Below, in pieces: positions 11,277 to 50,535 of a DNA stretch of 64,000 bases (positions within the stretch are counted from its first letter, which is position 1; every line of letters begins with the position of its first letter). Origin of the DNA: Narcine bancroftii (taxonomy: Eukaryota). The notes under the pieces were generated by a model that saw only the letters and a program-made list of their open reading frames with translations, searched no databases and was not told the origin of the DNA. The stretch is taken from positions 94,860,001 through 94,924,000 of the forward strand of contig NC_091476.1 of assembly GCF_036971445.1 (NCBI RefSeq). Direction: 5' to 3'. The position numbers and the translations under genes are program-made.

Positions 11277-13248
11277 TCTTCTTTGGCTTGGCTTCGCGGA
11301 CGAAGATTTATGGAGGGGGTAAAAAGTCCACGTCAGCTGCAGGCTTGTTTGTGGCTGACAAGTCCGATGCGGGACAGGCAGACACGATTGCAGCGGTTGC
11401 AAGGGAAAATTGGTTGGTTGGGGTTGGGTGTTGGGTTTTTCCTCCTTTGCCTTTTGTCAGTGAGGTGGGCTCTGTGGTCTTCTTCAAAGGAGGTTGCTGC
11501 CCGCCAAACTGTGAGGCGCCAAGATGCACGGTTTGAGGCGTTATCAGCCCACTGGCGGTGGTCAATGTGGCAGGCACCAAGAGATTTCTTTAGGCAGTCC
11601 TTGTACCTTTTCTTTGGTGCACCTCTGTCACGGTGGCCAGTGGAGAGCTCGCCATATAATACGATCTTGGGAAGGCGATGGTCCTCCATTCTGGAGACGT
11701 GACCAATCCAGCGCAGCTGGATCTTCAGCAGCGTGGACTCGATGCTGTCGACCTCTGCCATCTCGAGTACTTCGACGTTAGGGGTGTAAGCGCTCCAATG
11801 GATGTTGAGGATGGAGCGGAGACAACGCTGGTGGAAGCGTTCTAGGAGCCGTAGGTGGTGCCGGTAGAGGACCCATGATTCGGAGCCGAACAGGAGTGTG
11901 GGTATGACAACGGCTCTGTATACGCTTATCTTTGTGAGGTTTTTCAGTTGGTTGTTTTTCCAGACTCTTTTGTGTAGTCTTCCAAAGGCGCTATTTGCCT
12001 TGGCGAGTCTGTTGTCTATCTCATTGTCGATCCTTGCATCTGATGAAATGGTGCAGCCGAGATAGGTAAACTGGTTGACCGTTTTGAGTTTTGTGTGCCC
12101 GATGGAGATGTGGGAGAGCTGGTAGTCATGGTGGGGAGCTGGCTGATGGAGGACCTCAGTTTTCTTCAGGCTGACTTCCAGGCCAAACATTTTGGCAGTT
12201 TCCGCAAAGCAGGACGTCAAGCGCTGAAGAGCTGGCTCTGAATGGGCAACTAAAGCGGCATCATCTGCAAAGAGTAGTTCACGGACAAGTTTCTCTTGTG
12301 TCTTGGTGTGAGCTTGCAGGTGCCTCAGATTGAAGAGACTGCCATCCGTGCGGTACCGGATGTAAACAGCGTCTTCATTGTTGGGGTCTTTCATGGCTTG
12401 GTTCAGCATCATGCTGAAGAAGATTGAAAAGAGGGTTGGTGCGAGAACACAGCCTTGCTTCACGCCATTGTTAATGGAGAAGGGTTCAGAGAGCTCATTG
12501 CTGTATCTGACCCGACCTTGTTGGTTTTCGTGCAGTTGGATAATCATGTTGAGGAACTTTGGGGGACATCCGATGCGCTCTAGTATTTGCCAAAGCCCTT
12601 TCCTGCTCACGGTGTCGAAGGCTTTGGTGAGGTCAACAAAGGTGATGTAGAGTCCTTTGTTTTGTTCTCTGCACTTTTCTTGGAGCTGTCTGAGGGCAAA
12701 GACCATGTCAGTGGTTCCTCTGTTTGCGCGAAAGCCGCACTGTGATTCTGGGAGAATATTCTCGGCGACACTAGGTATTATTCTATTTAGTAGCATCCTA
12801 GCGAAGATTTTGCCTGCAATGGAGAGCAACGTGATTCCCCTGTAGTTTGAGCAGTCTGATTTCTTGCCTTTGTTTTTGTACAGGGTGATGATGGTGGCAT
12901 CACGAAGATCCTGAGGCAGTTTACCTTGGTCCCAACAAAGCTTGAAAAACTCATGCAGTTTGGCATGCAGAGTTTTGCCGCCAGCCTTCCAGACTTCTGG
13001 GGGGATTCCATCCATACCTGCTGCTTTGCCACTTTTCAGTTGTTCGATTGCCTTATATGTCTCATCCAGGGTGGGAACCTCATCCAGCTCTAGCCTTAGG
13101 GGCTGTTGAGGGAGCTGGAGCAGGGCGGAATCTTGGACTGAGCGGTTGGCACTGAAAAGAGATTGGAAGTGTTCTGACCATCGGTTGAGGATGGAGATCT
13201 TGTCGCTGAGGAGGACTTTGCCGTCTGAGCTGCGCAGCGGGCTTTGGA
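11277..13248 (-). mobile_element. Young 5'-truncated RTE-clade (BovB-like) LINE
   Basis: TSD CAAGTTAAGAAT (11265-11276, 13249-13260); short AAGAAGA tail; uninterrupted RT frame. Confidence 0.95.
11333..13015 (-). CDS. RTE reverse transcriptase ORF (560 aa from internal Met; frame open to the truncation at ~13248)
   Basis: NYRGITLL, ESQCGFR, VDLTKAFDTV, GVKQGCVLAP, LFADD, YLG, C-terminal zinc finger CNRC...H..C. Confidence 0.9.
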   Translation of the reverse strand: MDGIPPEVWKAGGKTLHAKLHEFFKLCWDQGKLPQDLRDATIITLYKNKGKKSDCSNYRGITLLSIAGKIFARMLLNRIIPSVAENILPESQCGFRANRGTTDMVFALRQLQEKCREQNKGLYITFVDLTKAFDTVSRKGLWQILERIGCPPKFLNMIIQLHENQQGRVRYSNELSEPFSINNGVKQGCVLAPTLFSIFFSMMLNQAMKDPNNEDAVYIRYRTDGSLFNLRHLQAHTKTQEKLVRELLFADDAALVAHSEPALQRLTSCFAETAKMFGLEVSLKKTEVLHQPAPHHDYQLSHISIGHTKLKTVNQFTYLGCTISSDARIDNEIDNRLAKANSAFGRLHKRVWKNNQLKNLTKISVYRAVVIPTLLFGSESWVLYRHHLRLLERFHQRCLRSILNIHWSAYTPNVEVLEMAEVDSIESTLLKIQLRWIGHVSRMEDHRLPKIVLYGELSTGHRDRGAPKKRYKDCLKKSLGACHIDHRQWADNASNRASWRLTVWRAATSFEEDHRAHLTDKRQRRKNPTPNPNQPIFPCNRCNRVCLSRIGLVSHKQACS

Positions 13249-13559
13249 CAAGTTAAGAATAGAGGCTTGTTAAATACTCTGAAATGTAACATGCATATTG
13301 TATTTTGTTATCTTTTTTAATGTTTTTTTTAACTGGGTGGACAGATTCTTCGACAGCAAAACCAAGTTAATTTCTTCTAAGGGCACAGCTACACCTATAA
13401 TTACGAGATGGTTATTACAAAGCGTGCAGTTGGTGAGAAGCCTATCAATCTTTGTGACAGGGGTATCTGTGCATCATTTCTGTGAGCAAAGGGTTTAATG
13501 GAGGCTGAATCAATTATCCGAGCATAAAGCAGTCAATGGAATTGATCACGATAAATAAA

Positions 13560-14163: not shown

Positions 14164-14397
14164 TGTAGCGCTATCAATTGGACATGACAGATCCGAAGTC
14201 AAGATTAATAGGCTTGGATTGCTATAAACTGACAGGCATAGCTTACATACGGTTGGCCCAATTCCAAGGCAGTACTGAGGGAAGCGATTAGGCAGTACCA
14301 CCTTTATTAGGAATGATGAGAGGGAAGGAGTTACAGTATCAGCGGCGGGCCAACCAGTCCAATGCATGCATTACAGTGTACCAACATATTCACCACT
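14164..14397 (-). repeat. 3' LTR of the older Mag-like element
   Basis: Direct repeat of 24194-24418 (gctatcaatt, gaagtc.agatt, ggcagtactg, gcgggccaaccagt). Confidence 0.85.
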
Positions 14398-17300
14398 TCC
14401 TTTAAAACAAAGTCCAGCGGGATGAAGTGACAGAGTCCATTCAGAGTCTATTTACAGGTTCAGCCTGACCAGTATTTCGTCCATCGAACTGACTGTCGCA
14501 GTGCTGGCTGTAGTGTTGCTGCTGGCTCCTGGGCAGTGCTCTGTGTAATGGGCTGTGATTCGGATGGCTGAACAGAATCAGTTATAGCTGGATGGGGGTT
14601 GGAGGAAGGGGGGTATGGGTTGGGGCGGTGCAACTGGTACCAATGGTAGGGTTGGATACCTGACTGTATCGCTAGTAGTCATGGGGAAAAGGTGGGGGTG
14701 CTAGTTGGTCAGCCATGATCAGTCCAGTAGGTGCCTGAGTTTTGGGGCCTCCTGCATGTGCCAGGCCCCGGACAGAGACAGTGTCTCTCTGCCCTTCCTG
14801 CACATAGGCATACTGGGGGTTTGCATGGAGACAGTGGACCTTCTCAACCAGGGGTTCTGCTTTATAGGTTCTAGTTTGTCTCCAAAGCAGCACAGGCCCT
14901 GGGGTCATCAGCCAGACTGATAGCATGTTTCCCAACACCGATCTCCCGAGGAAGGATAATAATTTTTCATGTGGGGTAGCACTTGTTGCAGGACAAAGGA
15001 GGGACATGGTGGCGTGGAGTGCCTCTGGCTGGACTTCTTGCCATTGGGAGACAGTGAGCCCTTTTGAGCTGAGGGCCAGGAGGACAGCCCTCCAAATGGT
15101 GCCATTCTCCCTTTCCATGTGGCCATTCCCTCAGAGGGTTATAGCTGGTGGTCCTGCTCAAGGCTATGCCTTTGGCCAGCATCCATTGGCGCAAATCCTT
15201 GCTCATGAATGAGAAACCTCAGTCACTGTGGATGCAACTAGGTTCAATTGAAGAGCAGGAAGAGGTTATTCAGGGACTTAATAACTGACTATGGTCATAT
15301 CTCGGCAGGGGATGGCGAATTGGAATCATGAATATTCATCAACAATGTTGAGAAAACACACGTTCCGGTTTGTGGAGGGAAGGGGACCCTTGAAATCCAT
15401 ACTCAAAAGAGCAGGTGGCCTTGATCAGGTGAGATTTCTGTGGCCGGTAGAAGTGCAACTTGCACTCAACGCAGACGGGGCACCTGCAGGTAAGCTCCCT
15501 GATATCCTCAACCGAGTATGGGAGGCTGTGGATTTTTACAAAGGGATAGAGCCTGGTGACCCCAGGGTGGCAGAGGCTGTTGTGAAGAGCTTGAAGGTGG
15601 TCATCTAGTGCATTGGTGCAGGTACCCTGGGACAGGACATCAGGAGGCTCGTTGAGCTTCCTGGGCTGGTACGAGATCTCGTAGTTGTAGTTGGACAGTT
15701 CAATTCTCAACCTTAGGGTCTTGTCATTCTTAATTTTTCCCTGTTGTTTGTTGTTAAACATGAATGGTTTACTGGCCAGATAATGCCTCCAGTCGTGCAC
15801 AGCTTCCACGATGGCCTGGGGCTATTTTCTATGGCTGAGTGCTGGAGTTTGGGGCCCTGGAGGGTATGGGAGAAAAATGCCACCTGCCTACCCACTTGCT
15901 TGCATGGCAGCCAGGGCAATGTTGGACGCATCGCTCTCCACCTGGAATGGGATGGATTCATCTAAGGTGTGTATTGCTGCCTTGGCAATGTCGCCTTTGA
16001 TGTTAATGAAGGCTACCTAAGATTCTGGTGATGAGAGAAAGGCGGTAGAATTTTTACCAAAGGATAATATGATAAGAACCTCAGGCACCTTTTCAGGGCA
16101 TTCAGGCTATGGGGAGTGGAACTTCCAGTACAGGCCACATACACTCACGGTTGGGTCCAATGACTCCATTCACCACCACACACACTAGTAAAGCCAGACG
16201 AGAAGTGCGGATCATGCATTTCTTCTGGTTATATGTGAAGTTTAGGGCTGTCTGAAGGAATTTTTGCAGGTTAACATCGTAATTCTGCTGGTCACGGCCA
16301 CAGAGGGTCATGTTGTCCAGATAGGGAAACATGACTTTCAATTGGTGGTTGCCCACCATTTGGTTCATCTCCAACCATTTGGTCCATCTCCCTCTGGAAG
16401 GCCAAAATTTTGTTCATGACTCCATAGGGGTGTGTATTGGTCGTCCTCTGAGTTGACCGGGAGCTGACAATAGGCTGACGAGGTTTCTGGTGGAGAAGAC
16501 AATGTTGGCTATGCTGGGGAGGGGATAGACATCCAAGATGGTGAACTGGTCGATGATCTGGCTGAAGTCTATGACAATTCTGTGCTTCTTTCCACTCTTT
16601 ACTACCATTACCTGTGATCTCCAAGGGCTGGTGCTGGGTTGTATGATCCCCTCTGCCAGGAGTCGTTTAACCTCAGCCTTGATAAAGGCGCTGTTCCAGG
16701 AGCTGTATTGCCTGCTCTTAGTTGCCATAGACTTACAGTCGGAGTGAAGTTTTTGAACAGTGGAGTGTGGTGGGACCTGGAAGGTGGACAGATTGCAGGT
16801 CATCAGCAATAGGCGATATTTGGGTCGCTGATTGCCTGTGTTCAGGAAGATGAGCGGTGGTTCAAAAGTTGGTTATTATGGACTGTGAGGGAGGGGTTGT
16901 GCTGTTATCTTCCATTAGAACACTTTTAAGTTGGCACTGAATGTCCAGCTCCAGTATGACCATTGCACAGAGTTGTGGTATAATGATCAATATAAAATTT
17001 TTGTACTTGGTGCCACCCACAGTTAACGTTACTGTGCAGCTACCTTGGATTTCAATTGAATGGGACTTGGCGACTAACAAAACTTTACATTAGACTGGGG
17101 TCGCTGTGAAGGAGCAGGACTGTAAAGTGCCTGGTTGTACAAAGCTTTTGGTGTTTCCCGAGTCGAACAATCAGTTTGTAATGCAGTTATTAACCTCAAT
17201 GTCCATGGTGCACCTTGTTAATTGATGAGCGCTGCTCTGGACCAGAACAATAGTATCAGCTCATTGTCCAACTTGCTGCTGCTGTATGTGTGCATTGGCA

Positions 17301-18299
17301 ACTTCCAAGCTATCCGCCCCAAAGATGGCTGCCCCCATGGTTTGCACACGATTGCCACTGGAAGTGAAGCCAGAAGTGACACTGACCCAGGCTGTCGTCC
17401 CTGAATTCCTGCCACGCTGTTCACCATGGCCAGAAGTGGAGCCGGAAATGATGCATTCCAAGATGCCAACAGCTGCTGCACGCATGCGGTACTGCAGCGG
17501 GAAGGTTTGGACATACATACCCTTGCGTAGTCCTTTTCTTCCAAAGCTGGAGCAGGTCAGGCTTCTGGCTGTGCAGTTCCTCAGTGGGCATTTCTTCTGG
17601 CTGTAGCAATAGCACCTTGGGTATTCGGCGACAGCAGTTGCTGTTTGGGATCCTACATCCCAAGATGGCAGCACTCATGCTCCCCACATGGCAGCCGCAT
17701 TGCCGGAGCTGTAAGCCTCTGCATTCTTTTGGGCTGTCTCTAGCGATTTGGTGAGATCGACCTCGTCCTGTAGGGTCTGATCGCCCTTCTCCAGGAGCCT
17801 TTGTCTGATATGGTCAGACATGAAGCCGACCATACATGTGTTGCTGTTCAGCTCCTCCTGGTAGACGGCTGCCGTAACAACAGTGCACCCACAAGTTTGC
17901 CCTAGTTCCCGCAAGGCTTGAATGTATTCATTAACTGATGCACCAGGTGCTTGTTAATGACAGCCCAGTAGGTATCTGGCATAGATTACATTCATCAGTG
18001 CCCAGTACTACTTTCGCAGGAGCCGCATAGCAACTGACTAAGTTTCACAGTTCTTGATCTTCTGGAAAGCCCTGGTGGCCGACCTATGCAAACAGTAGGT
18101 CTCTCCAGTCAACTTGTTCCCAAATATTATATTGCCTTATAAAGGCGTTCAAGCAGTGCACCCAGGAGGAGTCACGTAATGGAGTAGTGGCTGGTAGGAG
18201 AATACCAGCCCTCTCCAGAAAAGAAGGAAAAAAAGTAAAGAAAAAGCAAAGCCCCAGACACAAAAACCACAAAAAATAAAAAATAAAGGTGTGGAGTAA

Positions 18300-19670
18300 A
18301 TGGCACCAAAGAAAGAAAATCCAAAAATAACGGGAAGAAAAGAAGAAGGAAAGACACCGGAAGAGAAAGGTGAAGGCCTTACCTGTACGAAGAAGCAGGG
18401 ACCTGCCGTGGAAAGAGAAGCCCACTCCCTGAGGTCAGTGGAAACCCCACAGGGTCACGACCCACCGAACGCAGAACTACAAAGATGGCTCACGGAGACA
18501 AAGAGAGGTGCGCAACCGCACATGACAAAGACAACTCCGACGGGAGGGGGGACCAGCTGTGGAGGGGAACACCACAGTGCAAACAGCTGAGGAAGACCCT
18601 AAAGCAGGGCTCCCAGTGGGAATGGGAGGGAGGAGAATGAAAAAAAGGAAATCAGAGACACAACAGATGACCAGCCCAGAGGAAGAGGACCAACATCAAG
18701 ACACCACAAAAAAAATCCAGTGAACTGAGACAAACAGCCCAACAAGAAAGTCAGAAGACACACAGATACAAGGAAGAGAGGTAGAGGACACAGGCATTGG
18801 AGTGGACACAGGGGAAGAGGAGGGAGAGCATCAAGCTTTGCACAGAGAAAAGATTAAGGGAATGGACAGTACATGGATAAAAAAAAAATCAAGAATATAT
18901 GGAAGCATTAAAAGAATGGCTGACATGAGAATTTAGTGAAATAAAAAGAAGAATAAAAGGTACAGAAGAAAAAGTGAATAGATTAGAGCTGGTCATGTCA
19001 GAAATAGGGAAAAGAGTAGACAAGGTGGAAGAACAAGAAACAGCCGTAGAAATTGAAGTGGATGACTTAAAAAGAAAATTGGAAGAAACTGATAAAAAAG
19101 TTAAAGAAACACAGGAGTTGTTAGCTCAGAAGATGGATATATGGAAAACTATAATAGGAGAAACAATATAAAGATAGTAGGCCTTAAGGAAGATGAAGAA
19201 GGCAAAGATATGAAAGAATTTATAAAAGAATGGATCCCCAAGGTCTGAGGAATGCCAAAAATACAGGAAGGAATGGAAATAGAAAGGGCACACAGAACAT
19301 TATCCCCCAAACCACAGCCACAACAAAAACCAAGATCCATTCTAGTAAAATTCCTGAGCTATATGACAAGAGAAAATATATTGGAGAAGGCAATGAAAAA
19401 AATGAGAGAAGACAAAAAGCTACTGGAATACAAAGGTCAAAATTTTTTTTTTCTATCCAGACATAAGTTTTGAGCTCCTGAAGAAGAGGAGGGACTTGAA
19501 CGCAGCAAAATCATTGCTATGGAAGAAAGGCTATAAATTTATGTAAAGATATCCAGTGGTGCTTAAAATAGTTATCCTGGGGCAGCAAAGCAGACTGTTC
19601 TCGGATACAGAGAAAGCACGAGGATTTGCAGAACGCCTGCAAAACAGAAAGAGAAATGAAGAGATGTAAC
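18300..19670 (+). pseudogene. L1 ORF1 (RNA-binding, coiled coil), disrupted
   Basis: MAPKKENPK start; coiled-coil piece 18974-19171; IERAHR piece 19252-19473. Confidence 0.75.
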
Positions 19671-20101
19671 AAGAACAAGAATGACGACAAACTTCGTATA
19701 AAGAAGAATAATAATGTATGTGTAAGAACTAAGAAGGGGAAGAAAGGAAAGAAAGGAAGTAAGGGGGGAATTACAAAGTGAGCTATGTTATATGTGAAGA
19801 TAAAAGTCTTTTCTGGGGGACTGGGTGGGAGAGAATAACAGTCACTGCGAAATCAGTTGACGCTTGCGAGCGGGTTCACAGTCCAAATGGAGAGGGGAGT
19901 TGTGGTTGCCCGGCAAGGGATAAGGGGCAACTCAGAGGGAGGGGGGGACATTTGGGGTTAATGGAATTTTAGATGTGGGAATAGTGGAAATATTTTATGT
20001 TTTAGAAGAGATGTCTTATAGTGTGTTCAAAAAAAACAGCAATGGATAAGGGGGAAAGATGGTGATGAGGAAGCGGAAATGAGAGGTAAACAAAGTATGA
20101 A

Positions 20102-23100
20102 ATGGTCATGTTGAACTATATGAATATAAATATTAATGGAATACACAACCTAATCAAGAGGAAGAGGCTGTTAAATTTACTGAAGAAAGAAAAAAATAAT
20201 ATAGCATTCGTGCAGGAAACACATCTAACTGAAGTGGAACTCAAGAAATTAAGGAGAGACTGGGTAGGGCATGTAACGGCAGCATCATATAATTCAAAAG
20301 CCAGAGGGATAGCTATATTAATCAATAAAAATGTACCAATCAAAATAGAGGAGGAAATAATAGATCCAGCAGGGAGGTATGTAATGTTAAAGTGTCAGAT
20401 ATATTCAGAATTTTGGAATTTGCTCAATGTATATGCACCTAATGAAGAGGATCAAAAATTTATGCAAGATATCTTTTTGAAGATTGCAGATATGCAGGGG
20501 AATATACTGATAGGAGGGGACTTTAACCTTAATTTGGACTCAAAGATAGACAAAACTGGACAAAAAACTAGCTGAAAGAACAAAGTATCCAAATTTATGG
20601 TTAAATCAATGCAGGAAATGCAATTTTTGGACATATGGAGGAGACAACACCCAAAGGAGAAGGAATACTCATATTATTCGGGTAGACACAAAACATACTC
20701 AAGGATAGAACTGTTCCTGTTGTCAGCCCACATCCAAGGGAGAGTTAGGAAAATGGAATATAAAGCTAGATTATTATCGGATCACTCACCCCTGTTATTA
20801 GCAATAGAGCTGGAAGACATCTCACCAAGAACAGATGGATGGAGATTAAACTCCATGCTACTTAAAAGACAGGATTTTAGAGAATTAATTGAGCAACAAA
20901 TTAAAATGTACTTTGAAATAAATATTAAATCAGTGAAAGATAAATTTATACTATGGGATGCAATGAAAGCGCTCATCAGAGGGCAGATAATAAGTTATGT
21001 AACTAAGATGAAGAAGGACTACAATCGGGAAATAGAAGAGCTGGAAAGGGAAATAGCAAGTACAGAAAAAGAATTAGCAACAAGGAAAGATACAACAAAA
21101 AGAAGAGAATTGGCGGACAAAAAAAAAAAGTATGAAACACTACAAATGTATAAGGTGGAGAAAAACATAATGAAAATAAAGCAGAAGTATTATGAGCTAG
21201 GAGAAAAAACGCACACAATACTAGCTTGGCAACTTAAGACAGAACAAACTAAAAGAATGGTATTGGCATCAAGGAAAACGGACAAACAAATTACATATAA
21301 CCTAACAAAGATCAATGAAAACTTCAAGGAATTCTGTGAGCAATTATATCAAACTGAGAATGAAGGGAAAGAAGACAAAATAGATGAGTTTCTAGCTAAA
21401 ATTGAACTACCGAAATTTCAAGAAGAGGAGCAAAATAAATCAACAACACCATTTGAACTAGAGGAAATACAGGATATATTTAAAAAACTACCGAACAATA
21501 AAACGCCAGGAGAGGACGGACTCACAATAGAATTCTATAAAACATTTAAAGACTTATTAATTCCTCCTCACCTGGAATTAATGAACCATATTGAAGAAAC
21601 ACAAATCATGGCAGAATCATGCAAAATAGCAATAATTACAGTAATACCAAAGATGGGGTAAGATCCACTAACAACAGCATCGTATAGACCAATATCTCTA
21701 CTTAACACAGATTATAAGATAATAGCTAAACAATTAGCAAACAGATTGGCCGACTGTGTACCAAAAATAGTAAAACTAGATCAAACTGGATTTATTAAGA
21801 AAAGACGAACAACGGACAATATCTGTAAATTTATTAACTTAATCCATGCAGTACAAGGAAACAAGACACCAACAGTGGCGGTTGCCTTAGATGCAGAGAA
21901 AGCCATTGACAGAGTAGAATGGAATTATTTATTCAAAGTACTACAGAGGTTCAACCTACCAGATAAATATATTAATTGGATTAAAACATTATATAAGGGA
22001 CCATTGGCTAAGGTGACAGTAAATGGATATATATCAAACCAATTTAAATTAAGCAGGTCAACTAGGCAGGGATGTCCACTATCTCCCTCACTGTTCGCTT
22101 TAGCTATAGAACCACTGGCAGAACTGATATTTGCAGATGACATCATAGTATACTTAACTGAACCAGAAATATCAATAAAAGAATTACATAAGAAATTGAA
22201 GGAATATGGAGAAGTATCGGGGTTCAAGATCAATGCAAATAAAAGTGAAGCAATGCCAATGAATAATGCAGATTTCACAAAGATGGCAAACACAAGCAAT
22301 CCAATACCTCGGTAAACAACTAGAAAATAATCTAGGTCATCTATACAAACTAAATTATCAGCCATTAATGAAGAAAATACAAGACGACTTAGAACATTGG
22401 AAAGATTTACCACTAACTCTGATAGGAAGGGTAAATTGCATTAACATGAATATCTTCCCAAGGATACAATACCTATTTCAATCGTTACCAATTCACCTAA
22501 CAGAAAAATTCTTCAAGGAACTAAAGAAAATAATAAGGAAATTCTTATGGAAAGGGGGGAAACCGAGGATAGCACGAGATAAATTTACAGAATGGTACAA
22601 ACAAGGGGGCTTACAGCTACCAAACTTTAAGAATTATTATAGAGCCGCACAATTAAGATACCTATCAGATTTTTGTCAAACAAGGGAAAAAGCAGACTGG
22701 ACCAGATTAGAGCTAGATAAAATAGGGGAGAAGGTACCTGAACATATACTATATGTGGAATGAAAAGCTGGTGCAACATAGGAATTCACCAGTACTGCAC
22801 CATCTGATCAACATTTGGAAGAAGATTCACGTAGAAAGGAATAAAACAAATTATCAACTACCAAAATTAATATTGACCAAAATCAACTAATTCCAATCAC
22901 AATAGATAACCTTTCCTTTAGACAATGGGAGAGAAAAGGGATTAAAAGAATAGAAAATTGTTTTTCGGGAAATAAATTATTATCTTTTGAACAAATGAAG
23001 TGCAAATATGGTATAACTCACACTACAATGTTTGCATACCACCAACTGAAAACCTACTTGAAGGACAAATTGGGAAGCAGGGTGAGGTTACCAGAAGGAA

Positions 23101-23808
23101 GCAATCATGAATATGTGATTACAGACACAATGATAATTAAAAGATTTATAACAAACATGTATATCGAACTGCAAGAGAAAAAGAACAAGGAAACAAGCTG
23201 TAAACCCAAACAAAAATAGGAACAAGGTCTAAACATAAAGAATGAAATATGGGAAAAGCTATGCTCCGGAATTATGAGAAATACAATAAACATGAGGTTA
23301 AGCATGATCGAATATAATTGGTTGCACAGGTTATACACCCCGCTCCAAAAGTTAAATAAATGGGACCCAACAGTATCAGACAGATGTTTTCACTCTAAGA
23401 AGGAAATGGGAACAACAGTACATGCAATTTGGGAATGTGAGAAAGTGAAAAAGTTTTGGGAAGATCTAAATCAGGTATTAAATAAAATCACAAAAAGCAA
23501 CATACCAAAAAAATCCAGAGATCTTTCTTCTAAGTAATATAAGAAGTAAAGAACTAGGCCTCAATTTGGATGTAGCACAAAAAAGATTTATTATGATAGC
23601 CTTAGCTGTAGAAAAAAAATGTATAATGTCAACTTGGATATCAGAAGAGAGCCTGAGAGTACAGCAATGGTACATAGAAATGGATAAATGTATTCCATTG
23701 GAAAAAATAACATATAATTTAAGAAATAACATCACAGTATTCGAACAAATTTGGGAACCATACATGGAACACAACAGAGAAGTCCTATCACGGACCTCCA
23801 CCACCTAA
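20102..23808 (+). pseudogene. L1 ORF2 (endonuclease-RT), disrupted
   Basis: Consecutive ORF pieces from 20102-20575 to 23566-23808; short internal deletion joining PLAEL to IFADD. Confidence 0.9.
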
Positions 23809-24193
23809 AATGACAGAAGGAGAAGAATATGAAATGAACTGACCCTGTATGTAAAAGTAGAAGACACAAATTTCTTGTTTATTTTCATTGTGTGATGACA
23901 TTGTTTAATGTATCATATATGTTGAACGTTGAGTGGTTGGGAAGGGGGGGGATGAAGGAGGGAGGGAAGGAAGAGGGGTAAAGGGGAGAAAATGACACTG
24001 TGTATATTCAAGAGGGAAATGTTTATGTGTATTTTGGTCAGTATGGTTCATAGTGTGAAAAATAAAAAAAATAAAAAATAATAGCAGTGCACCCACTGGT
24101 CAGATTCTTCGGAGGCCTTTGGATCTTTAGGGTCAGTGTCTAGCTTCTTGCTCGAATAGCCCTATCCATGGCACAAAATTACAGCAATTAAAT

Positions 24194-24418
24194 TGTGGTG
24201 CTATCAATTAGACCCAACAGACCAGAAGTCGAGATTAACAGGCTTTAACTGGTATAAGCTTGCAGGCATATTTTACTTGCCGTTGGCCCTATTCTAAGGC
24301 AGTACTGGGGGAGGAGATTTGGCGGTACCACCTTTATTAGGAATCCTGGAGGGGGAGGGGTTACAGTATCAGGGGCGGGCCAACCAGTACAATGGCTGTG
24401 ATACATTTTTCCACCACA
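24194..24418 (-). repeat. 5' LTR of the older Mag-like element
   Basis: TGTGGTG...CACCACA; adjacent to a 24-nt leader and gag ATG at 24169. Confidence 0.85.
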
Positions 24419-36320: not shown

Positions 36321-38544
36321 GGGTTAACAATAAATTCACTGAAATCAATTTACCGATGAAAATTCACCATCTATCAAATTCTTTGGCTTGGCTTCGCGGA
36401 CGAAGATTTATGGAGGGGTAATGTCCACGTCAGCTGCAGGCTCGTTTGTGGCTGACAAGTCCGATGCGGGACAGGCAGACATGGTTGTAGCAGTTGCAAG
36501 GGAAAATTGGTTGGTTGGGGTTGGGTGTGGTGTTTCATCTCCTTTGTCTTTTGTCAGTGAGGTGGGCTCTGGGGTCTTCTTCAAAGGAGGTTGCTGCCTG
36601 CCGAACTGTGAGGCGCCAAGATGCACAGTTTGAGGCGATATCAGCCCACTGGCAGTGGTCAATGTGGCAGGCACCAAGAGATTTCTTTAGGCAGTCCTTG
36701 TACCTCTTCTTTGGTGCACCTCTGTCTCGGTGGCCAGTAGAGATCTCGCCATAGAACACAATCTTGGGAAGGCGATGGTCCTCCATTCTGGAAACGTGAC
36801 CTACCCAGCGCAGTTGGATCTTCAGCAGCTTGGATTCGATGCTGTCGGCCTCTGCCATCTCGAGTACTTCGATGTTGGTGATGAAGTTGCTCCAATGAAT
36901 GTTGAGGATGCAGTGGAGACAATGCTGGTGGAAGCGTTCTAGGAGCTGTAGGTGATGCCGGTAGAGGACCCATGATTTGGTGCCGAACAGGAGTGTGGGT
37001 ATGACAACGGTTCTGTATACATTAATCTTCGTGAGGTTTTTCAGTTGGTTGTTTTTCCAGACTCATTTGTGTAGTCTTCCAAAGGCACTATTTGCCTTGG
37101 CGAGTCTGTTGTCTATCTCGTTGTCGATCCTTGCATCCGATGAAATGGTGCAGCAGAGATAGGTAAGCTGGTTGACCGTTTTGAGTTTTGTGTGCCCGAT
37201 GGAGATGTGGGGGGGCTGGTAGTCATGGTGGGGAGCTGGCTGATGAAGGACCTCAGTTTTCTTCAGGCTGACTTCAAGGCCAAACATTTTGGCAGTTTCC
37301 GCAAAACAGGACGTCAAGCACTGAAGAGCTGGCTCTGAATGGGCAACTAAAGCGGCATCGTCAGCAAAGAGTAGTTCAAGGATGAGTTGCTCTTGTGTCT
37401 TAGTGTGAGCTCGCAGGCACCTCAGATTGAAGAGACTGCCATCCGTGCGGTACCGGATGTAAACAGCGTCTTCATTGTTGGGGTCTTTCATGGCTTGGTT
37501 CAGCATCATGCTGAAGAAGATTGAAAAGAGGGTTGGTGCGAGAACACAGCCTTGCTTCACGCCATTGTTAATGGAGAAGGGTTCAGAGAGCTCATTGCTG
37601 TATCTGACCCGACCTTTTTGGTTTCGTGCAGTTGGATAACCATGTTGAGGAACTTTGGGGGGCATCCGAGGCGCTCTAATATTTGCCAAAGCCCTTTCCT
37701 ACTCACGGTGTCGAAGGCTTTGGTGAGGTCAACAAAGGTGATGTAGAGTCCTTTGTTTTGTTCTCTGCACTTTTCTTCGAGCTGTCTGAGGGAAAGACCA
37801 TGTCAGTAGTTCCTCTGTTTGCACGAAAGCCACACTGTGATTCTGGGAGAACATTTTTTGCGACACTAGGTATTATTCTATTTAGGAGAATCCTAGCAAA
37901 GATTTTGCCTGCAATGGAGAGCAGCATGATTCCCCTGTAGTTTGAGCAGTCTGATTTCTCACCTTTTTTTATGTACAGGGTGATGATGATGGCATCACGA
38001 AGGTCCTGAGGCAGCTTTTCTTGGTCCCAGCAGAGCTTGAAAAACTCATGCAATTTGGCATGCAGAGTTTTGCCGCCAGCCTTCCAGACCTCTGGGGGGA
38101 TTCCATCCATACCTGCTGCTTTGCCACTTTTCAGTTGTTCAATTGCCTTATATGTCTCTTCCCGGGTGAGGACCTCATCCAGCTCTAACCTTAAGGGCTA
38201 TTGAGGGAGCTGGATTCTTGGACTGAGTGGTTGACACTGAAAAGAGATTAGAAGTGTTCTGACCATCAGTTGAGGATGGAGATCTTGTCGCTGAGGAGGA
38301 CTTTGCCATCTGAGCTGCGCAGCAGGCTTTGGACTTGGGATGAGGGGCCATACACAGCCTTTAGAGCCTCGCAAAAACCCCTGAAATCGCCAATGTCCGC
38401 GCTGAGCTGGGTTCATTTGGCGAGGCTAGTCCACCACTCATTTTTGATCTCCTGGAGTTTGCGCTGAAGATGGCTGCATGCGCGACGGAAGGCTCGTTTC
38501 TTCTTTGGCCAGGGTGGCTTTGCAAGGTGAGCCTGGTGGGCAGC

Positions 38545-38784
38545 TGTAGAGCTCGTCGAAAGAACCAAAGACTTGTTGATCCAAACCAAGGCTTTTATTA
38601 GCAAAAGACCGGAGCTCTTCACAGGTGGCCAACCAGTCCGGAATGATCCGACCTGGCTAGGGACACAACCCTTTAAGGCCCAAACAATAGGTGTGGCTTA
38701 GCTCTCAGCCAATCGCTGTAAGCACAGTCTAGATACAGTAACTATATACACTATGTACATTGGTGATAGATCTGTACTATCACA
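38545..38784 (-). repeat. 3' LTR of the young Gypsy
   Basis: Identical to 43268-43507 except 2 substitutions; AATAAA on minus strand at 38594-38599. Confidence 0.97.
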
Positions 38785-38797
38785 TTCACCCCTTCTT
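38785..38797 (-). promoter_or_regulatory. Polypurine tract
   Basis: Minus strand AAGAAGGGGTGAA immediately before the 3' LTR. Confidence 0.85.
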
Positions 38798-38856
38798 GGA
38801 GAATTGACCCTGGGAAAAAAAAAAAACGAGGGAGAGAATGAAAATGAAGGGGTAGG

Positions 38857-41800
38857 TCAAGGACTGTAGCGGTCAGGGGGTCTGACCATCCGGCGTGACC
38901 GCCGTGGTGCCGGGATTGGGGTCGCTGGAGTGGTGTCGCCAGCGGGCTCATCGGGTGCGACTGCTCCGTCGCTCAATTCCCCAGTCGTTTTGTCGGCAGG
39001 GTGGCCCGAGTCATTGGGGTGCTGTTGGTCCTTCTGTTGCGGCACGGGGCCTGGAGCATAAGGAGTTGGGGGGTTTGCTGGGTCTACCGCGTCCTGAGCT
39101 AGGTCCTGCACCGAAACAGTGTCCTCCCGCCCGTCTGGGAACTCCACGTATGCGTAATGTGGGTTCGCGTGGAGTAGAGTCACTCGGTCGACCAAGGGGT
39201 CGTTCTTTGAGTGCCGGACGTGGCGTCGCAAAAGGACGGGGCCAGGGACGGTGAGCCATGCCGGTACAGTGGTTCCCGATTCGGATTTCCTCGGGAAAAG
39301 GAACATCCTTTCGTGGGGGGTGGCATTTGTTGCAGTACATAGGAGGGAGCGGATGGAGTGTAAGGCACTAGTGAGAACCTCCTGCCAGTGAGAGGTGGGG
39401 AGACCTTTAGACCGGAGAGCCAGTGTAACCGCTCTCCATATGGTGGCATTCTCCCTCTCGACCTGGCCATTACCGCGTGGGTTATAGCTCGTGGTCCTGC
39501 TTGAAGCAATACCACACTCCAGAAGGTACTGTTGCAGCTCTGCACTCATGAATGAGGACCCCCTATCACTGTGGATGGAATTGGGGTACCCGAAGATGGT
39601 GAAAATACTGTGAAGGGCCTGTATCACTGAGGTGGCAGTGGTGTCTGGGCAGGCCACAGCGAATGGGAAGCGGGAGTATTCGTCGATGGCCGTAAGGATG
39701 TAGGTATTACGGTTGGTCGACGGTAGGGGTCCCTTAAAGTCTACGCTAAGACGCTCGAAGGGGCGGGTGGCTTTGATAACGTGGGAGTTATCCGGACGGA
39801 AGAAGTGGGGCTTGCATTCGGCGCACACCGAACAGGCTCGGGTCATGGAGCAGATCTCCTCAACTGTGTAGGGTAAGTTGCGCGCCTTGACAAAGTGAGC
39901 AAACCTAGTGACCCCTGGATGACAGAGCGCCTCATGGAGTTTCCGTAGTCTGTCCATCTGTATGCTGGCGCACGTTCCCCTGGAGAGCACGTCAGGCGGG
40001 TCGTTGAGCTTACCAGGCCGGTACAGGATGTCATAGTTAAAGGTGGAGAGTTCGATTCTCCATCTGGCGATTTTGTCGTTTTTTATCTTACCACGCTGGG
40101 TGTTGCTGAACATGAAGGAGACCGCGCGTTGATCAGTCAACAGTGTAAAGCGCCTCCCAGCGAGGTAATGTCTCCAACGACGTACCGCTTCAACTATGGC
40201 CTGGGCCTCCTTCTCGATCGAGGAGTGTCTACTCTCCGGACCCTGGAGGGTTCTGGAGAAGAAGGCTACAGGCCGACCGGCCTGGTTCAAGGTGGCTGCC
40301 AGGGCGAAGTCGGATGCATCGCTCTCGACTTGAAACGGGACAGACTCATCGATCGCGTGCAGCGTCGCAGCAGCGATGTCAGATTTGATTCGATCGAAAG
40401 CCGCTGTGGCTTCGGTCGAGAGGGGAAAAGAGGTGGTCTTGATAAGAGGACGTGCCTTGTCGGCGTAGTTTGGAACCCATTGGGCGTAATACGAGAAAAG
40501 GCCCAGGCAGCGTTTGAGAGCTTTCTGGGTATGTGGGGGGGGTAAGTCCATTAAGGGACGCATGCGGTCAGGATCTGGCATGACTATCCCGTTTTCCACC
40601 ACACAACCTAGAATAGCGAGTCGTGTGGTCCGGAAAACACACTTGTCCAAATTGTAAGTCAGGTTTAGCTGACGGGCAGTTTGAAGAAATTTGTCTAGGT
40701 TGGCGTCATGGTCCTGCATGTCGTGGCCGCAGATGGTGATATTGTCCAGATACGGGAAGGTAGCGGTTAGCCCGTTCTGGTCCACCATCCTGTCCATTTC
40801 CCGCTGGAAGACCGCGACACCATTTGTGACCCCGAATGGTACCCTGAGAAATTGATATAGCCGCCCATTCGCTTCAAAGGCCGTGAATGGTCGGTCCTCG
40901 CAGCGGATCGGGAGCTGGTGGTAGGCCGAACGTAGGTCAATAGTGGAGAAAATGCGGTACTGGGCGATCTGGTTCACCACATCCGTGATGCATGGCAGGG
41001 GGTACGCATCCAGGAGTGTGAAGCGGTTAATGGTCTGGCTATAGTCGACCACCATCCGTAGTTTTTCCCCATTCTTGACAACCACCACCTGGGCTCTCCA
41101 GGGGCTTGAACTGGGTTCGATGATGCCCTCATCCAGCAATCTACGCACCTCACTCCTAATGAATTGCCTGTTTTCGTAACTATATTGCCGACTTTTGGTG
41201 GCCACAGGCTTCCAGCCAGGGGTGAGGTTTGCGAAGAGTGCTGGCGGGGCAATCCGGAGTGTGGAAAGGCCGCAGGATTGGCCCCGGGGCACGGGGGCGG
41301 GTTGCTCGGGTGCTTCGGGAGTGGGGCGATGGCAGACCGAGAGGGGGGCGTGGGGTCCCCCAAAGTGTAGGGACACCGTTTGGAACTGACACTGGAAGTC
41401 TAATCCCAGCAACACTGGGGCGCACAATTGGGGAAGGACGAATAATTTAAAGTGGGTGACCGTCACGCCCTGTACTTCCAGCGTGGCGATGCAATACCCC
41501 TTTATCTCAGTCGAGTGCGACCTCGTCGCTAATGAGATCCTCTGGGTAGTGGGGATAATGTCAAGTCCCCAACGGAGGGTCAGATCTGGCTGGATAAAAC
41601 TGTCAGTTGACCCAGAGTCAAATAAGCAATTGGTGTAGTGTCCATGCACTTTAATCAGTTCCATTGCTCTGGTGAGGGGATGAGAGCATTGCTGGTTTAA
41701 TGTTATTGAAGCAGTTGACAGGGGAGTTTTGCGCGATGACGTCACGCAACGGGATGACGTCACGCAACGGGATGACGTAGTCAACGCTCGAGGAGCAGGT

Positions 41801-43233
41801 TGGAGAACCTCCCGGAAGTGCTGTTGTGGCGGGTGAATGGTAAGTAGTGGGGTTTGTAGTTGCTCGCGATTGGCGGTCGGGCCCTGGCGGTCGTCAGCGA
41901 TGGACGCTAGGGTGAGCACCTGGTTGGCCGCGGGGGTGGCTGCGGCGGCGGTAGCGTCGGCCCCGGGGGTGTCTGTGGTGGCGGCAGCAGCGGCGGTAGC
42001 GTCGGCCCCGGGGGTGTCCGTGGCGGCGGCAGCAGCGGCTGTAATGTCGGCCCCGGAGGTGTCCGTGGCGGCGGCAGCAGCGGCGGTAGCGTCGGCCCCG
42101 GGGGTGTCCGTGGCGGCGGCGGCAGCAGCGGCGGTAGCGTCGGCCCCGGGGGCGTCCGTGGCGGCGGCAGCAGTGGCGATAGCGTCGGCCCCGGGGGCGT
42201 CCGTGGCGGCGGCAGCAGCGGCGGTAGCGTCGGCCCCGGGGGTGGCTGTGGCGGCGGCAGCAGCGGTGGTAGCGCCGGTAGTGTCAAGTGTTCCGCACGG
42301 GGGCGAGAGGCAGGCCATCACCATGGTTGCGATGGTGGGTTGCCCCTTCCGGGTTCGGCGTCTCCGTGACGTCAGGCGTTGCCGTGCAGGGGAGCCCTCG
42401 CTCTCATTGGACGAGAGCTCTGGGGAAGAAGAGTTTGAATGGGATAGTGGCGGTTGAGCTTCACACGAGGCACTGTGTTTGCTGGCGGCCATTTTAGACC
42501 TACAGACTGCAGCAAAGTGGCCCTTTTTAAGGCACTTCTGGCACCTGGCTTTTCTTGCTGGGCACTGGGATCTGCTGTGCTTGTCCCTCCCGCAGAAATA
42601 ACATTTCGGGTTCGCACGGGGCAGGGTAGCAGCAGCCGACAGGCCGTCAGGGGTAGGGTAGAAGGGCACTCTACTCACATCAGAATGTGGGGTCCAGTCC
42701 CTAGAGAGCTCGGTGGACTTTAAGGCTGCATCCTCCATTGTGATTGCAATCCGGGCCACGTCCTCTAGTTTTTCTACCCCTTGCTCGAGCAAACGCAGCC
42801 TCACTTCGTTCGATCGGAGCCCGGCCACATAGGCATCCCGGACGAGGTCGCTAGTGATCTCGGCAGCAGTTTTGTCCACACAGTTACAGTCCTTGCCCAA
42901 TGCCTTTAATACTTGTAAATATGCCCTGCTGGACTCGCCGGGCTGTTGCTTCCTCGACGCAAGCACGAGCCGGGCATGAACTCTGTTCACCGGTTGATCA
43001 TACAGTCCTTTCAGTACCTTTATGGCTGCGGTGTAAGTGGTCTCATCCTGGATGTTCTCGTAGACTCTCAAGGACACCATAGACAGCAATGCTGTTAGAC
43101 GCTGGTTATCCTCCTCTACCTGAATGAATCTCAGGAAGTTTTCAAAGTTCAGCAGCCAGAAGTTAAAGGCTTTGAAGGCTGTAGCTGACTGTGGGTCGAT
43201 ATCAAGTTTTTCTGGCCGAGTTAAACGCTCCAT
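38857..43233 (-). CDS. Gag-Pol polyprotein (1458 aa from ATG 43233): gag, 2x CCHC, Ala/Thr repeat, PR, RT, RNase H, integrase
   Basis: [14 protein letters not shown] and [14 protein letters not shown]; PR LFDSGS; [23 protein letters not shown]; RH DASD..EKE..TD; INT HHCC, VDFKGP, SDRG, GQVER. Confidence 0.95.
41930..42270 (-). repeat. In-frame 45-bp GC-rich minisatellite (~7 copies; [15 protein letters not shown])
   Basis: Unit ggtagcgtcggccccgggggtgtccgtggcggcggcagcagcggc on the plus strand; one 48-bp variant. Confidence 0.95.
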
Positions 43234-43267
43234 CCCTTTCAAAAAAAATTCTTTTTGCTAATAAAAT

Positions 43268-43507
43268 TGTAGAGCTCGTCGAAAGAACCAAAGACTTGTT
43301 GATCCAAACCAAGGCTTTTATTAGCAAAATACCGGAGCTCTTCACAGGTGGCCGACCAGTCCGGAATGATCCGACCTGGCTAGGGACACAACCCTTTAAG
43401 GCCCAAACAATAGGTGTGGCTTAGCTCTCAGCCAATCGCTGTAAGCACAGTCTAGATACAGTAACTATATACACTATGTACATTGGTGATAGATCTGTAC
43501 TATCACA
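43268..43507 (-). repeat. 5' LTR of the young Gypsy with putative Pol II promoter
   Basis: CCAAT 43432-43436; TATA-like TTAAAG 43399-43394; Inr-like TCATTC 43369-43364 (A+1 is 32 nt downstream); AATAAA 43322-43317. Confidence 0.9.
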
Positions 43508-48677: not shown

Positions 48678-50535
48678 CTTAGAAAATATAGACAATAGAC
48701 AAACAGGGTAGGAGCAGGCCATTTGGCCCTTTGAGACACTGCTGCCATTCACTGTGATTATGGCTGATCATCCACAATCAGTACCCACTCCCTGCCTTCT
48801 CCCCATATCCTTTGACTCCACTATCTTTATGAGCTCTATCTAGTTCTTTATGGAAAGCATCCAGAAAATTGACCTCCATGATTATGAAGCAGAGCATTCC
48901 ACAGAACCACAACTCTCCAGGTGAAAATATTTTTCCTCACCTCCATTCTAAATGGTCTACCCCTTATTATTAAAATGTGGCTTCTGGTTCCCAACATAGG
49001 GAAGATGTTTCCTGTTTTTAGCGTGTCCAATCCCTTAATAATCTTACATATTTCAATCAGATCCCATCTCATCTTTCTAATTCCAGTGTATTCATGCCCA
49101 ATTGCTCCAATCTTTCAACATATGACAGTCCCACCATCCTGGAATTCAACCTCGTGAACTCCCTCAATAGCAAGAATGTCCTTCCTCAAACTTGGAAACC
49201 AAAACTGCACACAGTATGTCGGGTGTGGTCTCACCAGGGCCTGTAAAACTGCAGAAGTTCCTCTTTGCTCCTATACTCAACTCCCCTTATGAAGGCCAAC
49301 ATGCCATTAGCTTTCTTCACTGCCTGATGTACCTGCATGCTTACTTTCAGTGACTGATGAACAACAACACCTAGATCTGGATGTACATCTTAACCTTTTC
49401 TTAACTTCACACCATTCAGATAGTAATCTACTTTCCTGATCTTGCCACCAAAGTGGATAACCTTACATTTATCCACATTAAACTCCATCTACCATGCATC
49501 TTCCCATTCACCCAACCTGTCCAAGTCACCCTGCATTCGTACAATATCCTCCTCACAATTCACATAGCCACTCAGTTTGTGTCATCTACAAATTAGCTCA
49601 TGTTACTTTTAATCCCTTCATTTATATCATTAATATATTTTGAAATGAATAAATGTATTCCATTGGAAAAAATAACATATAATTTAAGAAATAACATCAC
49701 AGTATTCAAACAAATTTGGGAACCGTACATGGAACACAACAGAGAAGTCCTACCGCGCACCTCCACCACCTAAAATGACAGAAGGAGAAGAAGACAAAAT
49801 GAACTGACCCAGTATGTAAAAGTAGAAGACACAAATTTCTTATTTATTTTCATTGTGTGATGACATTGTTTAATGTATCATATATGTTGAATGTTGAGTG
49901 GTTGGGGAGGGGGGCTGAAGGAGGGAGGGAAGGGAGAGGGATAAAAGGAGAAAATGATACTGTGTATATTCAAGAGGGAAATGTTTGTGTGTATTTTGGT
50001 CAGTATGGTTCATAGAGTGAAAAATTAAAAAAAAAATAATATATTTTGTAAATAGCTGTGGTCCCAGCACCAAGCCTTGCTGTACCCCACTAGTCACTGC
50101 CTGCTAGTCTGAAAGGGACCTATTAATCCCTACTTTTTGTTTCCTGTCTGCCAAGCATTTTCTATCTATGTCAGTACCATACCCCCAGTACCATATGCTC
50201 TAATTTTGCCCACTAATGTCCTATGTGGGATCTTATCAAAGGCTTTCTGAATGTCCAGGTACATTAAATCCACTGGCTCTCTTTTGTCCATTTTCATAGT
50301 TACAAACACAAAAAATTCCAGAAGATTAGTCAACCATGATTTCCCCTTTGTAAATCCATGCTGACCTGGGCCGATCCTGTTACTGCTATTCAAATGTGCT
50401 GCTATTTCATCTTTTATAATTGACTCCAGCATCTTCCCACCACTGATGTCAGACTAGTCTATAATTCCCAGTTTTCTCTCTCCCTCCTTTCTTAAAAAGT
50501 GGGATAATATTAGTTATCCTCCAATCCACAGGGAC
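48678..50535 (-). mobile_element. CR1 LINE fragment split by an L1 3' end
   Basis: ORFs 50166-50432 (HGFTKGKS, YLDIQKAFDKIPH), 49870-50097 (SGVQQG) and 48848-49072; CR1 3' end near 48680. Confidence 0.88.
49643..50036 (+). mobile_element. 5'-truncated L1 3' end (same family as 18165-24082)
   Basis: Near-identical to ~23678-24070; poly(A); TSD TAATATATTTTG (49631-49642, 50037-50048). Confidence 0.92.

Follow-up and report, generated by a model that had tools for sequence, protein, structure and literature searches.

The window analysed here is a 64,000-nucleotide stretch of the Narcine bancroftii genome (GCF_036971445.1, contig NC_091476.1, positions 94,860,001 to 94,924,000) and carries two related LTR elements, both on the minus strand. 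The older is a decayed Ty3/Gypsy retrotransposon. Its 225-bp 5' LTR, with TG...CA ends, lies at 24194-24418 and its 3' LTR at 14164-14388; the two are 81% identical. The start of the 3' LTR and the target duplication show decay, and the flanks CACTC/TGCTC are compatible with a decayed 5-bp target duplication. Gag starts at an ATG at 24169 and is recognizable over 24082-24169, where it is interrupted by a later LINE-like insertion on the plus strand (18074-24081, left end approximate) with endonuclease and reverse transcriptase pieces and an A-rich tail. Broken gag-pol remnants at 14726-18073 align with the polyprotein of the young element at 28-55% identity and in the same domain order, with the reverse transcriptase motif YLDN, and a polypurine tract lies at 14389-14403. 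LINE pieces have second copies in the window at 93-94% identity (23677-24080 and 49642-50041; 11279-13249 and 36379-38334), and the young LTR element sits inside the second of these LINE copies.

The young sister element (38545-43507) is intact, with 240-bp LTRs that are 99% identical (5' LTR 43268-43507; 3' LTR 38545-38784, or 38545-38797 with the polypurine tract) and a 5-bp target duplication. A single gag-pol ORF (38857-43233) encodes two CCHC knuckles, protease, reverse transcriptase (YLDN), RNase H and integrase. Pfam analysis of this ORF gave the Ty3/Gypsy order of protease, reverse transcriptase, RNase H and integrase, Ty3 Gag-Pol was the best PDB match, and the TG...CA LTRs, the polypurine tract and a target duplication within 4-6 bp agree with Ty3/Gypsy. 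No chromodomain was found by Pfam in the young ORF or in the domain lists of 120 homologues. Read by eye, the protein has two CCHC arrays and no GPY/F module. GPV and DRV occur at the integrase end, where the Mag cluster has a GxV/I module, but no exact G-x-V/I could be fixed in the expected register. One protein with 99% identity to the young ORF carries the source label Narcine bancroftii, and relatives at 57-78% identity, among the best 120 of 1,114, come from other rays, sharks, a sea anemone, a nematode and many aquatic metagenomes. No relative was found among viral contigs. At 1,466 residues the young ORF is longer than that of most relatives, which has about 1,200; a 45-base in-frame tandem repeat (41885-42323) encodes an Ala/Thr-rich stretch between Gag and protease. 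In both window elements YxDN replaces the motif YxDD (40735-40760 and 16300-16340, minus strand), as in 96 of 122 motif matches among 121 proteins that include the young ORF homologues P0002-P0121. The matching change in Ty3, D214N, keeps activity and lowers processivity, according to the available part of PMC5371799.

A first-pass annotation of the window had proposed that the old element has no TGG primer-binding site and that its leader is instead complementary to a poly(A)-signal region inside its own LTR. The leader does begin with A and then TTT; it comprises 24 bases (24193-24170) between the LTR end at 24194 and the ATG at 24169. The LTR segments lie at 24244-24257 and 14214-14227 (previously placed at 24244 and about 14213), each matches the leader 14-mer at 11 of 14 positions, and the distance from segment to LTR end is 50 bases in the old element and 48 in the young, as had been noted. 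The LTRs of the two families are indeed poorly alignable, with no blastn match between them and gappy global alignments. In the old 5' LTR, the R segment at 24244-24256, followed by GCC, pairs with a candidate primer-binding site at 24180-24192, one base past the LTR end, at 10 of 13 positions by Watson-Crick pairs and at 12 of 13 when G-U is counted. This is a weak match, equalled by 46 of 2000 shuffled LTRs and marginal in a single copy, and for neither element was the whole-strand fold more stable than shuffles (old element, z 0.87). The corresponding site of the young element (43253-43266) pairs with 43316-43329 at 14 of 14 positions.

Pairing in the old family was assessed in the 30 best loci, of which 22 (the window and other loci) are 5' LTRs followed by leader and eight are LTRs followed by host flank. 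The 5' copies averaged 11.1 of 13 Watson-Crick pairs compared to 6.0 in the host-flank copies; three (L002, L016, L018) paired at 13 of 13, and ATTAAA was present in 15 of the 22. Losses of pairing were concentrated, with CpG-type changes, at two central positions. The first-pass annotation had rebuilt the ancestral segment by choosing between the two window LTRs: the pairing it inferred is clear in family copies, but the two central positions are the most variable, with C/T and G/A changes typical of CpG decay, and the reconstruction there is therefore just one decay product. Family-level statements are based on per-copy counts.

The arrangement extends to related families. The metagenome scan covered 79 loci, 30 of them with a gag start, and a helix of 11-22 pairs lay directly upstream of gag in 25 of the 30. 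L074 and L077 had the helix at the other end of the contig, and three of the 30 (L079, L104, L105) had neither LTR nor helix. Searching the Narcine bancroftii genome with a gag N-terminus returned more families with the same layout. We compared 29 representatives, 12 from this genome and 17 from metagenomes, which are not all independent; in most, reverse transcriptase-RNase H identity to the young element drops to 51-66%. Metagenome LTR ends were mostly placed with the help of the helix, and direct repeats confirm L061, L065, L068, L099 and L131. No leader among the 29 begins with TGG. Between the LTR-terminal CA and the helix lies 0-1 base, the helix closes with AAA, mostly followed by GCC or ACC, and this register stays while loop length ranges from 23 to 69 bases. 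Leaders paired with their own LTRs at 12.5 of 13 positions compared to 10.0 in mismatched LTR-leader pairs, a value reached by none of 100,000 permutations. Helix columns 5-12 each contain 3-6 pair types, with 28-29 of the 29 representatives paired. Leader and LTR segment covary across the representatives, and the family-copy counts and the permutation test rule out a chance match. The claim of a selected RNA structure stood as far as retained pairing with changed letters is concerned, and its tie to the poly(A) signal stood in part: the helix ends in AATAAA in 12 representatives, in ATTAAA in seven and in another sequence in ten, which gives a canonical hexamer in 19 of 29, and in 10 of the 12 from Narcine bancroftii. 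The ATG is often 15-35 bases away from the helix. In every family the element's own R segment appears, by sequence, to be the sole one complementary to the site.

The pairing looks selected, not copied: among the 15 young-family copies that have the normal type of leader but an altered base 9 in it, just 2 carry the compensating LTR base. The idea that the covariation arises because the site is copied from the primer was unsupported by this count and by the old family, where one column gave p 0.04 and its neighbour p 0.46. One young subfamily (L172, L175, L180, L185, L191) carries an unmatched G-to-A change in the primer site and a 7-base leader duplication.

Fold-back copies of the young family consist of the LTR, one A and then the LTR reverse complement from position 192 backwards. 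This junction gave 253 exact matches (control, 0) compared to 791 normal junctions, about one per three as match counts, not rates. Two samples of 100 of the 253 junctions were read, the second held out. The inverted copy reached the LTR start in 148 of the 200. There were 50 complete palindromes, and 38 of these had a 5-bp target duplication, which argues that they were inserted by integrase.

Thirty-three inverted copies leave for internal sequence: 17 end at LTR position 136-143, 15 at 144-175 and one at 103. Ends at position 136 or beyond accounted for 15 of 15 in the first sample and 17 of 18 in the held-out sample. The 33 junctions represent about 28 distinct ones (el665 and el3796 occur three times each, el513 twice), and their ends are blurred by microhomology of 0-4 bases, in one case 11. 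Nineteen more inverted copies, ending in host or LTR sequence at scattered positions, were left out of the stop count since later deletion can make them. The edge coincides with a predicted transcription start, and 32 of the 33 copies stop at or before it. Position 141 of the young LTR (43367) is an initiator-like A, 32 bases past a TATA-like element (43393-43399), and the predicted 52-base primer runs from it to position 192 (43316), the end of AATAAAA. In all 15 own-genome LTRs examined, an initiator-like A lies 29-33 bases past a TATA-like element and 47-63 bases before the helix end; both sites were picked by eye, in this genome only. In the old 5' LTR, a TATA-like element picked by eye at 24331-24338 matches in position the TATAAAG of sister families L157, L162 and L146, and an initiator-like A 32 bases past it (24306) is the predicted start. 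The predicted primer of the old family is 63 bases long, its start being mapped by no old-family copy. At the TATA position, the old family and one sister family (L143, L147, L152, L168) have AATAAA; this places a poly(A)-like hexamer in U3, whose use in the 3' LTR must be avoided.

A second set of ends falls at the other side of the predicted primer. In 18 of the 200 junctions the copy is a snap-back, with inverted U5 ending at 190-193, the predicted cut, and 4 of 6 scorable cases had a target duplication. Inverted internal sequence was joined to U5 in 58 cases, 43 of them starting at 182-202. Many of these 43 start before 193, within the helix, for which a clean cut alone is insufficient.

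In the old family, the exact fold-back pattern had no matches. Allowing two mismatches gave 19: L288, L290, L292 and L293 are fold-backs and L294 is a questionable case, whereas L289 and L291 hold inverted LTRs that have been rearranged; the remaining 12, left unread, resemble ordinary LTR matches. In total, seven distinct fold-back copies of the old family were found, one a full palindrome with a 5-bp duplication; none joins internal sequence after the inverted part, and the stop is thus not addressed there. The exact 24-base fold-back was absent from the 79 metagenome loci. L094 was rejected as an invertebrate fold-back, being an internal inversion: at L094:4786-9200, both ends are inverted relative to the central 1.5-kb part and the sequence is 99.7-100% identical to L065.

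Several young-family copies depart from the simple pattern. The same junction from inverted copy to internal sequence occurs at several loci (L204, L221 and L249; L195, L273, L350 and L417; L207 and L424), and such copies, which have a perfect 52-base primer site, may have been re-copied as non-autonomous elements. Short tandem arrays of fold-back junctions occur at L420 and L421 (G000:C11, about 145.9 and 147.0 Mb) and L379 (G000:C16, about 12.2 Mb), with spacings of three junctions at about 332 bases and three within 200 bases. L173, L174 and L176 are internally deleted elements that jump to internal sequence after nine primer-site bases. The footprint of template jumping was weak: an extra base at 141-143 was seen in 2 of 76 inverted and 0 of 99 forward copies, and in none of the second sample. 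A YxDN polymerase with lowered processivity could favour the jumps seen in fold-back copies; the helix is found in YLDD and YLDN families alike.

Since the end of the LTR is set by where minus-strand DNA begins, that start must lie at the site following the LTR. The fixed one-base register of the helix to the LTR end, together with the fold-back copies, leads us to extend the partly supported reading of a selected RNA structure and to take the helix as the primer-binding site of a self-priming element. We think it likely that the RNA of these elements is primed in the manner of Tf1, by a piece of its own 5' end (predicted at about 52-63 bases and ending at the hexamer) and without a tRNA. Transcription would start about 50-60 bases ahead of the end of the paired segment, as the TATA/initiator spacing and the fold-back ends suggest. 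The R segment would then pair with the primer-binding site and loop out U5, consistent with the conserved complementarity. By analogy with Tf1, the RNA is predicted to be cut where the final AAA meets the conserved RCC, with the element's RNase H as the probable enzyme, and the 3' end of the 5' fragment would prime minus-strand DNA one base from the LTR end. Plus-strand DNA would at times copy the primer, which is predicted to be retained covalently, become self-complementary and fold back or jump; integrase would then insert the palindromes and rearranged copies that are observed. In the weakest step, where the segment holds AAUAAA or AUUAAA, pairing and cutting might also silence the 5' poly(A) site.

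The 136-143 edge is best read as the 5' terminus of an RNA template, and the 190-193 ends as the points where the strong-stop DNA template stops. Together they fit a primer consisting of the first 52 bases of the RNA, freed by a cut after AAA. A stop at 136-143 would also arise if plus-strand DNA annealed to another RNA molecule, uncut, at its 5' end, and the junctions inside the helix require a further step.

An uncut template is also central to an alternative that we consider unlikely, in which a short RNA from early cleavage at the 5' LTR poly(A) site is trimmed to the helix and primes a full-length RNA in trans. Under it, the primer would likewise have 52 bases and copies would stop at the same start site; it accommodates the helix-internal junctions at 182-191, and it agrees with a hexamer terminating the helix in 19 of 29 representatives. 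Strong-stop DNA would be expected to reach the cap if the template were uncut, yet 18 of 200 snap-backs end at 190-193, and in 10 of 29 representatives the canonical hexamer is absent.

Priming by the other end of the RNA seems very improbable. Here the R copy at the 3' end of genomic RNA, trimmed to AAA, would pair with the site in a circle: the 3' LTR holds the same segment, and U3, for which the 3' RNA end or DNA is the sole possible source, is part of 148 of 200 inverted copies. Against this, copies leaving for internal sequence stop at the predicted start (32 of 33) and not anywhere in U3, and inverted copies nearly always end at the first LTR base and not in the polypurine tract (L228 is an exception).

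We give equally little credence to a helix whose sole role is to mask the promoter-proximal poly(A) signal, or to regulate translation from the nearby ATG, while another RNA primes. The hexamer at the helix end in 10 of 12 own-genome representatives and an ATG often within 15-35 bases would suit such a role, whereas an occluding hairpin needs no fixed one-base register to the LTR end, and the helix is kept in the 10 of 29 relatives without the hexamer. A TGG site is absent, the letters differ per family so that no common host primer fits, and the fold-back copies require a site copied from a complementary primer. Finally, a plain Tf1 scheme, with RNA starting at the paired segment, a primer of just 11-14 bases and fold-backs made purely at the DNA level, has the geometry described for Tf1 and Tj1 (PMC7175516, PMC4600332, available parts) and accounts for the palindromes, but is highly doubtful since it leaves unexplained the 136-143 edge and its coincidence with an initiator-like A 29-33 bases past a TATA-like element (15 of 15 LTRs).

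Priming by the element's own long 5' fragment can be compared with the known systems. To our knowledge, self-priming has been shown experimentally only in fission-yeast Tf1, and elsewhere is predicted from complementarity. Tf1/Tf2 of Schizosaccharomyces pombe, Tj1 of S. japonicus and the Tf1/sushi group likewise have no tRNA site but a site by the 5' LTR complementary to their own R (PMC7175516, PMC4600332, available parts), and the present elements share a primer site complementary to their own LTR. The position of the primer differs: the paired segment begins 38 bases downstream of the predicted start and the fold-back edge, and it is the 3' end of a predicted 47-63-base fragment, usually ending in a poly(A)-type hexamer. 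In Tf1, RNase H cuts after base 11 (PMC7175516, in part); here the snap-back ends at 190-193 fit a cut and name no enzyme. Plus-strand DNA of Tf1 also copies the primer, which is found copied into the cDNA end (PMC11042837, in part). In Ty3/Ty1 (PMC5371799), the first plus strand copying the primer is a dead end, unused for transfer, and inheritance of the site does not go through the primer. That few compensated variants were seen here (2 of 15) fits this rule, and the present fold-backs resemble the dead-end product, although here the product is self-complementary over 52 bases and integrated. Self-priming in Tcn1-clade Gypsy and TAR-lineage copia elements was predicted from complementarity alone (PMC6317226, in part); these are other lineages in other hosts, and primer length and fold-back copies are absent from the available part of that account.

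The protein places this lineage apart from the chromovirus branch, whose markers are a GPY/F module, 0-1 CCHC and often a chromodomain. In the available part of supplement 3 of PMC2774666, Tf1 has no CCHC and a GPY/F, and sushi-ichi one CCHC, GPY/F and a chromodomain, whereas the protein here has two CCHC knuckles and neither GPY/F nor chromodomain. For the Mag cluster (A, B and C clades) and for the Cigr-1 clade, the same supplement lists two CCHC arrays and an integrase placed after RNase H, with neither chromodomain nor envelope. The present lineage shares two CCHC arrays without a chromodomain with the Mag cluster, and with Cigr-1 also the loss of GPY/F; its LTRs are short, as in Mag C (PMC3601003, in part). 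Compared by marker descriptions, the protein fits either the Mag cluster or the Cigr-1 clade. LTRs of 245 bp and a single ORF of roughly 1,200 codons are features of Cigr-1, and the relatives here resemble it in this. In the portions of the literature available, self-priming was unmentioned for Mag and Cigr-1, and a search that left subscription journals and Repbase Reports outside found no account of self-priming in this lineage or of the Cigr-1 primer site. Some Gypsy families may be labelled self-primed in Repbase.

A broader proposal, which we regard as quite possible though somewhat short of probable, is that a large aquatic-animal Gypsy lineage outside the chromoviruses evolved its own form of self-priming. 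One 11-20-bp helix would do two jobs: it would provide a capped 50-60-base primer and, by burying and cutting off AAUAAA, silence the 5' poly(A) site. Retention of the long primer would make the first plus strand self-complementary and give rise to 433-bp palindromic integrase products, a new class in which the start and cut sites of the RNA are recorded.

The pairing is real and lineage-wide. It represents a variant of self-priming in which the genome gives unusually direct evidence of the primer's two ends. New here are the fold-back junctions in the young sister family (253) and the old family (7). The lineage, which occurs in rays and sharks, in a sea anemone and a nematode and in many aquatic metagenomes, seems to represent a separate origin of self-priming with a different, predicted primer. 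Software that annotates elements by their tRNA site would overlook this whole group or label it wrongly. Fold-back copies also supply short perfect inverted repeats, one family contributing about 250 here, and they let primer ends and start sites be read from genome sequence alone, an approach usable on any proposed self-priming family.
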